A stretch of DNA of 64,000 bases from the IMG/VR virus record IMGVR_UViG_3300050144_000106, one strand, 5' to 3'. Shown one piece after another: positions 31,264 through 43,451 of this stretch. The position numbers and the translations under genes are program-made. This DNA comes from a virus. The notes under the pieces were generated by a model. That model did no database searches, was not told the DNA's origin, and saw nothing but the letters and a program-made list of their open reading frames with translations. Each line of letters starts with the position of its first letter. The first letter of the stretch is position 1.

Positions 31264-34200
31264 TCAATTCTTGGCAACAGCCAGCGGTGGGCTGACCTTC
31301 ATGGTCAGGGATCGCGCAGCCCGTGGGTAGGCTGCGATCAAGCGCTTCCACACCCGAAGCGGTACCTCCCAAGCGTTCAGCTCTCTCTTCCACTTGGCGA
31401 CATCGCCTGCGGCTTTAGCTGACGCCTTGATTTGATCTTTCCACGTAAAGGTCTCGCCGCCAATCAGCACCAGGTCGTTGTCGCCTGGCTCGCGCTGTTT
31501 CGTGGCTGGCGCCACGCCTGCCGCTTCGGTGGCCTTTGGGGCCTCCAGCGCTTTGATGGCATTGGCATAAATCGCAACGCTGCCTGGGGATGCAATTTGC
31601 AGCAGACTTGCCGCACCCCCCTGACTGTAGTCCGGATCAGTTGTGAGGTCATACCCAGCAAATGCCTGCTGCACCCACTGATCCAAAGCTTGATCTATTT
31701 CTTGCTGCGTGCTCAGATCTTTGAGGCTGTCTTCTAGCCGGGCACCTTGATGCGTGGCAAGAAGAACAGCCCTACTAGGCCAGGTGTGGCGATCCACCAC
31801 AGCCTTGGCATCGCTCCACGTCAATTTCAGGCCACGGGCCGCCGCAAACGCCAACATGCTGCTGAGTGAAATGCTGTATTGCATGCGCCCAGCTGGCCGG
31901 CGCAGCACGCCGGCGCTGGCCGGCGCGGTGAACATCACGCCGGCGCCGTAGTCGCCATCGCGCACGTCCGACACGATGGCGGCCTGCTGCTCCACGATAG
32001 CGCGCACCACCCGCGTGCCCTCCACAGCCTTGGCTGGATCAATCACATCGGGGAAGAGCGGGGATGGCAGCATGTAGTCGCGCAAGGTGTAGCGCAAGGC
32101 CACCGGCTTGGCGCAGCGCTCCCCCACCTCGGGCAACAGGGCGCTATAGAGATCGGGCTGGTGCTCAGGCTTGACGGCGGAAAGCCGTTCCTCCACCTGC
32201 GCCGCAGTGCTCAGGCAGGCGTCGTAGCCAGGCATGCCGGGCAACACCAACTCGCCGCCGCCGCTCATGGCGTCGGCCACCGACACGGTAATTGGCGCCC
32301 CTTGCTCCAGCACCCAGCCCACGGCCACCAGCGCATCGCCGCGCGTGGATTTGCGCACAAGGTAAAGCGGATTGCCGTCCTTGCGGATGAAGGCGCCGGT
32401 ACACACCGGCTTGCCATCCACCATAGCAGCCTCGCCGGTTTCCAGCTTGTCGGCCAGCACCGCCGGCATGCCCCCGGCTTCGCTCGCCAAGCGCTTGAAG
32501 TTGACCTTGGACTCCTCCACCATGCTGCGCGCCAAGTCCACCTCGGACTGCCAGTCTTGCTGGAGGATCGAGCCGTCGCTCACTTCAATGGCGAACATCG
32601 GGTAAGTCGCCCCCGTCAGGCTCTTAAACATCTCTTCTTCGAGCTTTTCGCCGCGCTTGAGTGAGCGCTGCACCTCCTGGGTGACTTGCGCCAGCGTGAC
32701 CACTTGGCCGTCATCCCTGCCGCCGTTTTTGCGCTTGATCGTGCCGGAGGTCTCAAGGTCGCGCTTCAGGCCGATCAAGCGGGCATCGATGTCGGCCTTG
32801 GTGGCTTGGTTGCGCAGCACCGACGAAGCGCTGGCCCTGGGGTTGTTGATGCGCTCTTGCAGAAGGCTCGACTGCGCCAACAACACCGCACAAGCGCAGG
32901 CCTTGCGGGCATACCAATGAGCCGGCGTGGCGTTGCCAGCCAGAAACGCCAGTTGCTTGGCTGCCGTGGCCAGGTTGACGGCTTGCTTGTTGCGCGTGCC
33001 CACGGCGCGCTTTTGCTCCTCCAGAGCGGTGGCCCGCTGCTGCATTTTGGTCATGGCGTCAGCGTCGCCCACCGAATCAATCAGGGCCTCCAACTGCTCG
33101 CGGGTCAGACCTGACTGAATGGCCACGTTGTCGCTGCCATCCTTGGCCATCAGGCTGTCGATCCAGCCGGCCTTGTTGCTCACCAGTTGGCGCTTGTAGC
33201 TGTCGAAGGTGCCGTCCGCGTCGTAGTGGTAGACGCGCACCATCTCGGTTTCGTTGCCCTGGCGCACGCCCCGGCCGTCGCGCTGGGTCAGGCTGTCGGG
33301 CGTCCAGCCGGTGGTGAGGTGGTGAATGGCCTGCGTGCCCTTTTGCAGGTTCAGCCCCACCTCGCCCTTCTCGTTCATGATGACCACGCGGTACTTATTG
33401 CCTTCCCCGTCCGCGTTGAATCCATCCTGCACCGCCAGGATTTCCTCGGGCTTGCCATTTACCTTGCCGGTGATGATGGCGATGGCCCCGGTCGGCACCC
33501 CGCAGCGCTTGATAAGCAAACGCCGGAGCTTGTTGTGGATGGCTAGGGTGTCGCAGAAGATGAGCTGGCGCACGCGCTGGGTTCGCTGCCCATTGATGAC
33601 CCCGCGCGGGTGAGCCTCCTCGTTTTGAAAGTTCTCCAGCAGCGCCGCCAGCTTTGGTGGCACGCTCACATCCAAATCCACGCCAGCCTTCTCCGCCATG
33701 GTCTCGAAGGCGGTCTGGGTCTGGGCGTCCATGCTGTCCAAGCACAGCCGCCCGTCATCCAACACCCGCGCCAAAGCTTTGATCCTTACCAGCGTCACAT
33801 CGCTGTCGCCATCGCGGATGGTTTTGGTGCCCACCACGGCGCCGGCCAGCGTCATTGGCCCAGGGCGCGAGCGCTCTTCCACCGGCGCCTTGGTCTCCCA
33901 GCGTGCCACCAGGTCGGCCACCTGCACCTGCTGGACGGCGGAAACCCGGTAGAACGTGGCCCGGTCGTCTAGCTCCGGGTCGGCAATCAGCGCCGCCATC
34001 TTGTTGATGAGGTTGAACGGGTGGCCAATCAGCTCCATCGGCTCGCCGAACTTTTCGGCCACGCGGTCATAGGCATCCTTGCTGCCGCCCACGGTTTTCT
34101 TTTCCATCAAGGTATCGATGGCAAAGCGGAAAGCGCCCTTGTAGTCTTGCAGGGTGGCTTTCACGCTTTCGGGCAAGTCCACGGCCACCGACGCCCGCCC

Positions 34201-42500: not shown

Positions 42501-43451
42501 AAAGAACTTGTGGTGCAGCTTCGACAGGAAGCCATCCAAGGCCACCCGCTCATGGATGTCCTCCATGCTCACCGCATCCAGCATCAGCCGCGCCGTGCCG
42601 TCATGTCGAGACAAGCCCGCCCAAACATCGGTGAGGCTTTGGCCGGCGGGCACCGCGTTGGCATGCCAAATGGCGCGGGGAACGGTTGTATCGATGGAGT
42701 CCATAGCGGTATTTGCCGGGGGATTGGCCGGCAGCAAATCAAGTGAAATGGGGAGGTGCTTATCCGCCCAGCGTAGCCACCAATTCAGCTGCGCAATGCT
42801 GAGTTCAAGTGGTGCGTCGTAGCGCTTCCAGCCTACGGTGTAGCTGGCGCGGTAGGCGCTTAGGGCGTGGTCGGCACCGGTGAAGCCAAACAGCACCTTG
42901 TGTTCATCGAAGCTCCCATCGGCGTTGGTTTGGTTCAGCACCCAAACCCGGCTCACCTGCTCAGGGGCAGGGCCGATGAAGATGTCTATCGGGTCGCCGT
43001 CGGCGCCTCTGGTGCTGGCGATGTAGCCGTAATGCGCCGCCATCGTGTTGCACCAAGGCGTGCCGTCAGCATCCGTGCCCCGGCGCTCCGTGCCGTAGGG
43101 GGTTTCGATGCACACCGGCATGCCAGCCAACGTCACGCGGCCAACGGCGTAGTTGCCGGCCAGCGCCTGCGCCTGGGAGGGCGGCGCTTTGCCGCTCAAC
43201 GGATGAAAAGCGGCCTGGCGTGCGGCGTCCTGCACAGCGGCGTAGGGGTTGCGGGAATTCTGCCGCCCTAAAGCCTTCTTGAGGGAGTCATGAAACCAGT
43301 GTGCGCTTTCGGCCTGGCATTGGGCGCATCCGAGCCGCATCGCGCCGCATCGCGCTTTCGCGCCATCGGGGCGTGGCTTGATGTGGCCATGCCACGTCCG
43401 GTAATCGGCTGGATCAAAATCGCTCATACCCCAATGGTCGGGGCTCGGCAT
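39576..43451 (-). CDS. Polyvalent virion-type protein (1291 aa) with a ParB/Srx-like (P1 DdrB-type) domain
   Basis: VVESGNGRTMAIIEAY within ...SLIVSHDADGNANPNYPMELQPRDRARA... matches the ParB-like GxGR signature. The N-terminal YGYI..T.GADGDPIDIFIG is a pyrophosphatase-like motif. There is an (AP)7 linker and several helical modules. The start may instead be ATG 43427. Confidence 0.7.
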   Translation of the reverse strand: MPSPDHWGMSDFDPADYRTWHGHIKPRPDGAKARCGAMRLGCAQCQAESAHWFHDSLKKALGRQNSRNPYAAVQDAARQAAFHPLSGKAPPSQAQALAGNYAVGRVTLAGMPVCIETPYGTERRGTDADGTPWCNTMAAHYGYIASTRGADGDPIDIFIGPAPEQVSRVWVLNQTNADGSFDEHKVLFGFTGADHALSAYRASYTVGWKRYDAPLELSIAQLNWWLRWADKHLPISLDLLPANPPANTAMDSIDTTVPRAIWHANAVPAGQSLTDVWAGLSRHDGTARLMLDAVSMEDIHERVALDGFLSKLHHKFFGNQYTKAKSSGAGAAAQAPKKEKPHAKFMRSAVAHAKTEHAMELEDEGASAAQLKAAHEAALRHHVHAARNAYSDKNAAEHAKAAKFHASKLARLKKSDKHLFDSASSAAPRDADVDPDIRDADLGDLLLSAEAVEIPGETGERVALDGIVTEAGRLKPRMDSLMRVMATVAADGVKPLTYQIAEPSKRYGGLHIAVLFELADGQTITIWFHNPDSTPAKISPADELVSWKWMLNKKDITLAVAPESGTDLNVKEVAHRVMALALKNSSAFARANTNRTERMQRIDSLTQELSAKQAFLKDLNGQIEVATEAKRAQEDAAFRDGTKGGAGQPITAPAPAPAPAPAPAPASIPEQAPAEGELAPEGRENVVKTAKGNKVTTGFAVVEAGSLIVSHDADGNANPNYPMELQPRDRARATSQAWVKKTAQNLDPESLGRTTRADTGAPIVGKDRVVESGNGRTMAIIEAYQIGKADEYRAWLESEASYFGINPDKVRAMKRPVLVRVRTSEVDRRAFAVEANQDDKLGMTATEKARSDAKRLDSVLLSYLPADGDLSANGAREFLAGFLKSLGDAEAAQYITSDGKPTASLIARVQAAIFAKAYADDRLLELTADSAKPEIANIISALNAAAPDFVRAMDVDPRATEGATQALTDGIELSLNQQAVAAIIGATNLVKQARDAGMQVEEFVKQQGLFGDVEPAVAAVAVFIAKNNRSAKRLGSAFKAMAQFIGAELQRRQTVDMFGSGGIQISMADVVAAANRQLEKEYGEGAFAIEQFGLFAGGTPPDAMPKTEPAPAPEAPPASDAEILSAYREIIKASRGMRSMVPIGELHKAVGGSLPALQESLKRMVASGQEDAYFVRGEPTVLTKDERDAAVSFNGKTYCFVELPLADAPNQGGANPAGNSGAVNRAAERTATLATLAQIASGQHPDMLSPELYGVIEAALTDYPEDSEIESAVTAAVDALEKGNLAATAGI
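41455..41500. repeat. Hexanucleotide tandem repeat (GCCGGA) x7.7
   Basis: Read directly from the sequence. It encodes the APAPAPAPAPAPAP linker of the 1291-aa protein. Confidence 0.95.

Follow-up and report, generated by a model that had tools for sequence, protein, structure and literature searches.

The 64-kb stretch of viral DNA analysed here (IMG/VR record IMGVR_UViG_3300050144_000106, hereafter the window), which is part of a 72-kb metagenome contig from an uncultured temperate phage, carries two giant genes and a handful of smaller ones that we read, with good confidence, as the Dar gene set of a temperate myovirus distantly related to phage P1, a reading that includes the mechanism proposed below. 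In P1, the proteins of this system (Dar, defence against restriction) travel in the phage head and shield injected DNA from the restriction enzymes of the host. The P1 system consists of Hdf, DarA, DdrA, DdrB, DarB and Ulx, and a further enzyme, Pro, trims DarA and the capsid protein; the literature on it reportedly includes Iida in 1987, Gonzales in 2022 and Zheng in 2026. Five of these six components have apparent homologues in the window, namely Hdf, the core and tail of DarA, the N-terminal half of DdrB, DarB and Ulx, and it is very probable, judging from sequence comparison, that the window proteins are genuine Dar homologues. The locus is more complete than an earlier note on this DNA had it, the Hdf-like, Ulx-like and Pro-like genes having been overlooked there. 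The features that carry the reading are as follows (aa, amino acids; HMM, hidden Markov model; AF2, AlphaFold2).

31264..37863, minus strand: 2199-aa DarB-like protein (PHROG, P1 DarB and Rb1 homologue)
36418..37512, minus strand: its predicted methylase region, aa 118-482 (P1 DarB aa 47-390, 37% identity, E 1e-53)
32944..35352, minus strand: its predicted SNF2-type helicase, aa 838-1640, with GLGKT, DEAH, SAT and QRDGRGVRQGN (PF00176, 27 bits, cut-off 24.9)
31267..32952, minus strand: its C-terminal module, 562 aa, aa 1638-2199 (62 homologous clusters, AF2 model)
39576..43451, minus strand: 1291-aa DarA-like polyvalent protein (Pfam domains, BLAST to P1 DdrB and DarA, PDB chains)
42774..43175, minus strand: its InPase (type I pyrophosphatase-like) domain, aa 93-226, with DGDPIDIF (PF18823, E 5e-43)
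42078..42548, minus strand: its K/A/H-rich insert, ~155 aa, aa 302-458 (missing from the closest homologue, P0001)
41532..42065, minus strand: its DarA_N domain, aa 463-585, and helix, aa 586-640 (PF18788, E 3e-33)
40167..41408, minus strand: its DdrB N-terminal half, with ddrB-ParB/Srx (aa 691-822, ESGNGRT) and a helical region to about aa 1095 (PF18763, E 8e-37)
39579..39794, minus strand: its DarA-type C-terminal tail, ~70 aa (alignment and HMM)
30791..31210, minus strand: Ulx-like protein, 139 aa (phrog_1629 'Ulx-like anti-restriction', E 2e-19; P1 Ulx, E 1e-5)
20677..21225, minus strand: Hdf-like protein, 182 aa, with a DarA_N domain (PF18788, E 1.7e-11; P1 Hdf, E 3.7e-12)
47684..48604, minus strand: Pro-like prohead protease (P1 Pro, 32% identity, E 1e-18)

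Both giant open reading frames (ORFs) announced by the earlier note were recovered at the lengths given above, together with the motifs that it had listed. In the larger protein these are VLDPAAGVGVFG at aa 197, TNVPFGE at aa 263, GLGKT at aa 911, DEAH at aa 1073, LSATP at aa 1125 and QRDGRGVRQGN at aa 1527, and in the smaller one DGDPIDIF at aa 151 and ESGNGRT at aa 771. Profile searches, which the note had named as a way in which its DarB/DdrB-type domains might fail, gave these domains strong support.

From N- to C-terminus, the 2199-aa protein consists of a tandem helical motif, a P/A linker, an N6-adenine methylase, a conserved middle, an SNF2 helicase and a conserved C-terminal module. 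That it combines a methylase and an SNF2 helicase in the manner of DarB, as had been proposed, is upheld by PHROG matches, by BLASTP to P1 DarB in both halves and by the full set of motifs. Among the PHROGs, phrog_11801 (E 0) covers aa 23-1663 and phrog_10089, 'DarB-like antirestriction', is found at E 7e-75, while the homologue in Xanthomonas phage Rb1 is 47% identical across aa 100-2018. Motif I (DPAAGVG) and motif IV (NVPFG) of the methylase match P1 DarB, and the Eco57I methylase family of Pfam is matched at E 6e-5 with 23.6 bits, slightly below its cut-off of 25.3 bits. The helicase (aa 838-1578) is 26% identical to aa 785-1559 of P1 DarB (BLASTP, E 7e-62) and conserves motifs I, II, III and VI, as P1 DarB does. 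The LPD36 domain, which Iyer et al. (2017) place N-terminal to the methylase, had no Pfam match in the DarB-like protein, and neither giant protein matched a peptidase or metallopeptidase (MPTase) in Pfam or PHROGs.

A protein of this kind might instead be a defence or exclusion enzyme (of the DISARM DrmD or type ISP sort), or a cytoplasmic self-methylase active during replication, that is not injected at all. This would fit weak PADLOC matches, which link the helicase C-lobe to DrmD (E 1e-11), ZorD and BrxHII and the methylase to type I methyltransferases, and a PDB match (2okc_A, E 0.006) that relates the methylase to M subunits of type I systems. However, these PADLOC and PDB matches reach no further than the generic C-lobe of SNF2 or the core of the methylase, whereas the likeness to the DarB PHROGs is full length and that to P1 DarB extends to both halves; moreover, the gene is part of the late virion block, a Ulx-like gene comes after it, and there is no adjacent nuclease or other DISARM/BREX partner. 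We consider such an enzyme very unlikely.

The 1291-aa protein is more intricate. It starts with a Cys-rich N-terminus, followed by InPase, a conserved linker, the K/A/H-rich insert, DarA_N, a helix, a P/A linker, the DdrB N-terminal half, an unassigned segment and the DarA-type C-terminal tail. The earlier note had seen in it a polyvalent protein with a ParB/Srx module of the DdrB type and a pyrophosphatase motif, and these domains stand (on Pfam matches and BLASTP to DdrB), but it had missed DarA_N, the DarA helix and the DarA-type tail. The DarA portion is the best anchored to a known structure: aa 515-632 are 37% identical to aa 135-250 of P1 DarA (BLASTP, E 4e-20), a region that comprises the hexon-binding domain and capsid-anchoring helix (PMC12810830), and the solved DarA chain 9ukm_I is matched in the PDB at E 1.5e-16. 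Residues D520 and N552-K553 of DarA_N are invariant in the family and fit the Asp + NX+ signature of Iyer et al. (2017). As for the tail, which is conserved across 18 InPase-DarA_N proteins, an HMM built with P1 left out finds aa 553-632 (of 639) of P1 DarA at E 1.2e-4, the top score among the 838 ORFs of a P1-type genome, the next being 0.4. Between core and tail, aa 682-1107 are 43% identical to aa 27-455 of P1 DdrB (BLASTP, E 2e-101), and the ESGNGRT motif is written in the same letters in both proteins. In the InPase domain, residues E116, R123, Y141, D151, D153, D156, D182, E183 and K185 are invariant among 18 family members, and the PDB matches of the 1291-aa protein include the solved portal chain 9b41_L, the C-terminus of which is an InPase domain. 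The 1291-aa protein is therefore, on these matches, a predicted DarA homologue at its core and tail with an N-terminal pyrophosphatase-like extension, in which a DdrB-type N-terminal half takes, by alignment, the place of the penton-binding and DarA_C regions of P1 DarA. The closest homologue begins at the position of Met9, and the true start of the gene may be this codon (43427).

The K/A/H-rich insert, which is probably helical, has a direct RVALDG repeat on both sides. Its absence from P0001, an 86%-identical homologue that has extra segments elsewhere, indicates that cargo layout varies even among close relatives.

The smaller members of the set support the same assignment. As in P1, the DarB-like gene is followed at once by the Ulx-like gene, and the Ulx homologue of Rb1 bridges the window and P1 proteins, being 36% identical to the former and matching P1 Ulx at E 2.6e-9. 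The Hdf-like gene adjoins the major capsid gene on its upstream side, and its product is 45% identical to the 'DarA N-terminal protein' of Rb1, while the Pro-like protease is 41% identical to the 'prohead core protein protease' of that phage.

In which phage does this set reside? The claim of the earlier note that the background is different from P1 did not hold, since P1 has distant homologues of at least 14 of the proteins encoded in the window, among them those of terminase, portal, prohead protease, capsid, sheath, tube and baseplate. Comparison with the P1-type genome SJ46 gave PacB (31% identity, E 1e-49), portal (Prt), Pro, BplA, TubB, a gp21-like tube protein and a tail protein (38%), and pairwise BLASTP added homologues of the capsid (E 2e-13) and sheath (E 8e-12) proteins, with identities of 22-44% between window and P1/SJ46 proteins. 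These protein-level homologies of structural genes mean that the background is not foreign to P1. At the nucleotide level, megablast of the 12.2-kb region found similarity in none of 50,697 phage records. No homologue of P1 rep/par was found in the 64-kb window, which has a tyrosine integrase gene (11855..12985, plus strand) and no tRNA genes. The phage is, as far as its sequence indicates, a distant and integrative P1 relative (a myovirus), outside the genus Punavirus proper, and its closest isolate is the temperate phage Rb1 (PQ569993.1, 91.5 kb), in which the structural genes are syntenic.

Both giant genes were found, as the earlier note had placed them, in the virion block, that is, in a single late block of ~42 kb which is entirely on the minus strand and is bounded by the terminase genes (about 52.8-55.3 kb; terminase 52801..54387) at one end and by tail genes near 13.3 kb at the other. 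A promoter/terminator scan between 29.9 and 44.8 kb gave nothing above the shuffled expectation, and operon boundaries could not be drawn. In G+C content (GC), and in its value at third codon positions (GC3), the two giant genes agree with the remainder of the late block, and because of the match in GC3 both look resident. This bears on the idea that the Dar-like genes were acquired horizontally, and recently, by an unrelated phage. In keeping with such an acquisition, there is no nucleotide similarity to the phage records searched, and DarB-like giants are present in unrelated podoviruses. Yet, besides the matching composition, the structural genes are P1-like at a similar divergence (22-38%), and the same locus is found at the same position in Rb1, in the related loci L008 and L012 and in many IMG/VR contigs, which makes recent acquisition extremely unlikely.

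The spread of the architecture was surveyed in 83 related loci, consisting of the best 80 of the 521 confirmed relatives of the InPase-containing protein that a pattern scan found in IMG/VR, together with L008, L010 and L012. InPase and DarA_N share one ORF in 37 of the 83, and in 13 they are joined there by DdrB-N, with a permuted domain order in two of these. A DarB-like gene is downstream in 7 of the 13 triple-domain loci (starting directly after the ORF in five), and is often followed by a Ulx-like gene and sometimes also by the portal gene. The order first giant, zero to two small genes, DarB-like, Ulx-like repeats in L008, L012, Rb1 and IMG/VR loci, and in several loci the giant has an Hdf-like gene immediately upstream, as darA has hdf in P1. 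Prophages with proteins of this kind were found in Beta- and Gammaproteobacteria, and their hosts include Halomonas, Sphaerotilus, Ectothiorhodospira, Ideonella, Psychrobacter, Nitrosomonas, Collimonas and Paraburkholderia, besides others. Strains that carry one are Halomonas salipaludis WRN001, Sphaerotilus natans ATCC 13338 and Ectothiorhodospira mobilis DSM 237. Cargo between helix and tail is freely exchanged among relatives, conservation in the InPase-DarA_N family being highest in the chassis rather than in the cargo, and one family member (P0009) retains DarA_C. The window is thus one member of a populous and essentially undescribed family, all the building blocks of which have already been defined (Iyer et al., 2017).

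A related arrangement was noticed in L010/L011 (Stutzerimonas nitrititolerans, about 93 kb, a P1-like size), where 958-aa InPase-DarA_N and 293-aa DarA_N proteins are encoded beside a PAAR-motif gene; no DarB-like methylase-helicase is found there in the 22.9 kb covered.

Comparison with the systems already known brings out what is shared and what is not. As in P1, homologues of Hdf, the DarA core and tail, the DdrB N-terminal half, DarB, Ulx and Pro are found among P1-type head and tail genes. Unlike in P1, (i) DarA and the N-terminal half of DdrB are fused in one protein that also has an N-terminal InPase, (ii) the DarB-like protein has an extra tandem helical motif at its N-terminus and an unrelated C-terminal part of 562 aa, (iii) the Dar genes form a single co-directional block rather than two separate operons and (iv) the phage has an integrase, whereas P1 is a plasmid prophage. 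Rb1 has an InPase-DarA_N giant, a DarB-like and a Ulx-like gene in the same order, a terminase with 61% identity and, in common with the window, portal, protease, capsid, sheath, Hdf-like and Ulx-like genes, but its giant (1221 aa) holds other cargo in place of DdrB-N. It also encodes a 637-aa protein (L001, 12568-14481, 'M12B reprolysin-like') homologous to P1 DdrB in the peptidase half at its C-terminus (E 2.6e-11). The gene for this 637-aa protein has the InPase-DarA_N giant on one side and the DarB-like gene on the other, in the slot that spanin and orphan genes occupy in the window, and the two DdrB halves have thus fared differently in Rb1 and in the window. Apart from one 'DarA N-terminal' label, the Rb1 record has no annotation of a Dar system. 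Bcep22-like podoviruses share the methylase-helicase core, again in the morphogenesis module (gp69 of JC1, 4515 aa), but gp69 is much larger and of unrelated background, with 26% identity over about 40% of the query. Finally, Iyer et al. (2017; J Bacteriol 199:e00245-17, PMC5512222) define DarA-N, DdrB-ParB, InPase and the methylase-SNF2 dyad as modules of phage-type polyvalent proteins encoded near virion genes. The window giants resemble that class in having at least two unrelated domains per ORF, a place in the late block and strong Pfam matches, but, unlike many polyvalent proteins, neither has a zincin-like MPTase (frequent, although not obligatory, in the class).

How might these proteins work? 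In P1, virion proteomics detect Ulx, DarB, DdrB, DdrA, DarA and Hdf (PMC9024508), and electron cryo-microscopy showed the capsid to have 55 DarA-Hdf pairs on its inside, which are gone after ejection and bind both capsid and DNA (PMC12810830). The DarB-like protein of podovirus JC1 is also virion-associated (PMC9144972). By analogy, the window Dar proteins are likely to be packaged and injected, while the chances that their target is type I restriction are about even. The mechanism that we propose has six steps. The first two are suggested by the sequence: (i) late minus-strand transcription would yield the Hdf-like, 1291-aa DarA-like, 2199-aa DarB-like and Ulx-like proteins and (ii) the DarA-type 1291-aa protein would bear two cargoes, the N-terminal pyrophosphatase-like domain and the internal ParB/Srx half of DdrB. 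The others are transposed from P1: (iii) DarA_N and the helix, paired with the Hdf-like protein, would attach to the procapsid from within, (iv) the Ulx-like protein would help to recruit the DarB-like protein, while the Pro-like protease may trim N-termini, (v) the proteins would exit the head alongside the DNA at infection and (vi) the DarB-like methylase-translocase would work in cis, as has been shown for P1 DarB, and the DarA/DdrB protein would bind incoming DNA, so that type I-like restriction is blunted. Speculatively, the fusion would give the DdrB module a built-in ticket to the head, which may explain the lack of a DdrB-type metallopeptidase half. The InPase domain may remove pyrophosphate or a nucleotide signal, as proposed by Iyer et al. 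(PMC5512222).

An alternative is that the 1291-aa protein is chiefly a head-assembly factor (a scaffold, size determinant or DNA organiser), in which case its enzyme-like domains would add little to anti-restriction, the locus would be mainly morphogenetic and the DarB-like protein would be its sole real counter-defence enzyme. Loss of DarA or Hdf in P1 indeed lowers normal heads from about 80% to about 15% (PMC12810830), the Hdf-like gene of the window adjoins the capsid gene, and it is the chassis, not the cargo, that is best conserved in the InPase-DarA_N family. Nevertheless, the catalytic-type residues of InPase are invariant and the GNGR of ParB/Srx is the same as in P1, which argues for selection on activity, and a freely swapped cargo suits conflict-driven effectors better than scaffolds. 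A mainly structural role of this kind seems unlikely to us, and we retain the Dar reading.

Several points nevertheless weigh against the Dar reading. Packaging, injection and anti-restriction are read across from homology at identities of only 26-43% between window and P1 Dar proteins. About 460 aa precede DarA_N in the 1291-aa protein, as against the ~70 aa lost by P1 DarA, and DarA_C (PF18789) and the penton-binding region were undetected in it (by Pfam, and by BLAST to DarA, which ends at aa 250, the tail excepted). The zincin-like metallopeptidase half of DdrB is also missing, tblastn of P1 DdrB matching the window by aa 27-455 alone. For DdrA, tblastn gave at best E 0.45, at unrelated places in the window, although a 121-aa protein could have diverged too far.

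The C-terminal part of the DarB-like protein, in which P1 offers no guide, deserves separate consideration. An exhaustive HMMER search of 1.84 billion representatives with aa 1638-2199 found 62 homologous clusters, mostly the C-termini of giants of 2100-2300 aa, and an AlphaFold2 model from a 49-sequence alignment is multi-domain, with a pLDDT (predicted local distance difference test) of 89.9 and a pTM (predicted template modelling score) of 0.72, for which Foldseek returned no match at E <= 0.001 in PDB or BFVD. A relationship with the C-terminus of P1 DarB (aa 1550-2255) was considered and dropped as undetectable, hhalign with the family profile giving a probability of 0.45%. These 562 aa are, on alignment and model, a real conserved module peculiar to one DarB subfamily, with a predicted fold without known match. 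The terminal ~75 aa (31267-31500, minus strand) bear the motif GxTxxWKDxIKxxA...W..W.V..W..L...P.A and also occur as metagenome ORFs of 85-108 aa (P0091, P0094, P0095, P0097, P0100 and P0105), which are either genes or fragments. The resemblance of this mini-domain to DUF5710 (PF18974) is weak and stays below threshold: the window segment has no match, the short homologue P0100 reaches only E 0.038 and 14.2 bits against a cut-off of 26.5 bits, and a DUF5710 protein of BFVD gives E 0.83.

The genes that intervene in, or flank, the Dar block are the following.

37888..38442, minus strand: predicted i-spanin, 184 aa (hydrophobic N-terminal segment, aa 1-31)
37941..38171, minus strand: predicted o-spanin, embedded in the +1 frame (MMLCVLLSAC..., lipobox LLSAC, Pro-rich)
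38481..39572, minus strand: AT-rich orphan, 363 aa, or 359 from ATG (GC 34-47% against 62-68% in the flanks)
43414..43860, minus strand: AntA-domain ORF, 148 aa (PF08346, E 2.7e-14)
28284..29915, minus strand: portal, a distant P1 Prt homologue (on the downstream side of the DarB-like and Ulx-like genes, a position that it shares with several relatives)

The spanin genes and the AT-rich orphan lie between the two giant genes, exactly where the earlier note had put them, but its suggestion that they echo the linkage of lyd and dar in P1 fails, because the spanin-orphan segment is an insertion specific to the window, absent from L008 and from the 83 related loci. In L008, the nearest relative (72-87% nucleotide identity), the giant genes are only 24 nt apart and positions 37824-39584 of the window have no counterpart, which defines an insertion of 1.76 kb, and the AntA segment (43444-44072) is replaced by 89 bp. 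The orphan, i-spanin and AntA ORFs were found in none of the 83 loci. Elsewhere, the slot between the giants holds two small ORFs (L012) or a separate peptidase similar to the C-terminal half of DdrB (Rb1 and 10 IMG/VR loci), or is empty. The slot is a variable insertion point, and the spanins, orphan and AntA ORF would be later insertions, outside the Dar system. The AntA/AntB antirepressor ORF overlaps the annotated start of the 1291-aa gene, which it adjoins upstream, inside the late block, and a pRha-type ORF is found at the equivalent place in L012.

The two spanin genes, which had no family-profile match in Pfam or PHROGs and were identified by sequence features, have what is, by those features, the classic embedded i-spanin/o-spanin (Rz/Rz1-type) layout. 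No endolysin or holin was recognised near them (or at 13295-14230, minus strand, and in the whole late block), P1 LydA, LydB, LydC and Lyz had no credible homologue in the window by tblastn, and the endolysin and spanin genes of Rb1 have no window counterpart. The pair may be the sole one in the window. The orphan found itself alone among 5.8 billion proteins, had no match in Pfam, PHROGs or PADLOC, and its single-sequence AlphaFold2 model (pLDDT 42) is unusable.

A side observation links the orphan with the DarB-like protein. Its C-terminus (38481-38560) ends with ...GLRERIALNKRLAELNEMR, which resembles the N-terminal motif of the DarB-like protein (37654-37782, aa 28-70), present there in tandem as LLQRIRLGKELASV and SLRERLTLGRRLAEL; the DarB-like proteins of L008 and L023 have kept this motif at the same end. 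In a six-frame translation of the window, matches to R[ILVM].L[GN][KR].LA are confined to the three sites in the orphan and the DarB-like protein. The likeness has a z of about 2.6, 7 of 300 shuffles reaching the score, and is post hoc; the DNA underneath differs, with AT-rich codons in the orphan and GC-rich codons in the DarB-like gene. The shared motif could be a docking peptide, or chance.

Taken together, the observations on fusion, chassis and motif allow a bolder interpretation, which we regard as doubtful, namely that the 1291-aa protein is a 'Rosetta-stone' fusion that would point to a partnership of DarA and DdrB-N in P1, to an InPase-DarA chassis and to a docking peptide in DarB-like proteins. 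If it were true, (i) P1 DarA and the N-terminal half of DdrB would touch directly, and DdrB could be the unassigned density by the helix and penton-binding domains of DarA, (ii) InPase-DarA would be a capsid-docking chassis, made of an N-terminal region of ~640 aa and a tail of ~70 aa, the middle of which is a swappable slot for injected effectors, so that 37 or more related loci would offer, in their many unannotated middles, a catalogue of new counter-defence domains, and (iii) the DarB-like motif R-[ILVM]-x-L-[GN]-[KR]-x-L-A would be a docking peptide, and the orphan with its near copy may be a newly captured co-packaged effector.

The Dar locus is largely expected and built from described domains, and current understanding is not overturned by it. 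Its interest is that the Dar system would not be an enterobacterial peculiarity of P1, but a conserved apparatus for delivery from inside the head, shared by temperate myoviruses, and by prophages in Beta- and Gammaproteobacteria, that form a broad and mostly undescribed set. That DarA and DdrB are naturally fused hints at which Dar proteins are in contact inside the P1 head, the InPase-DarA proteins (conserved ends, variable middle) are a place to mine new injected counter-defence domains, and the C-terminal module of the DarB-like protein (~560 aa, a confident model and no structural relative) would reasonably be taken up in studies of structure and function.

Some minor features of the window remain to be mentioned. 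Between the Ulx-like and portal genes are ORFs of 179 aa (30221-30760, minus strand) and 65 aa (29981-30178, minus strand), the first of which had no match in Pfam, PHROGs or PADLOC, lies in a stretch of lower GC (about 53%, GC3 0.47) and may be another inserted gene. Outside the late block, a 589-aa protein (2595-4364, plus strand) has Erf-like annealing and RecE-like exonuclease domains. A glycosyltransferase gene with an EryCIII-like C-terminal domain (56153-57385, plus strand) is divergent from the late block, beside the gene for a helix-turn-helix protein, and may serve in lysogenic conversion or DNA modification.

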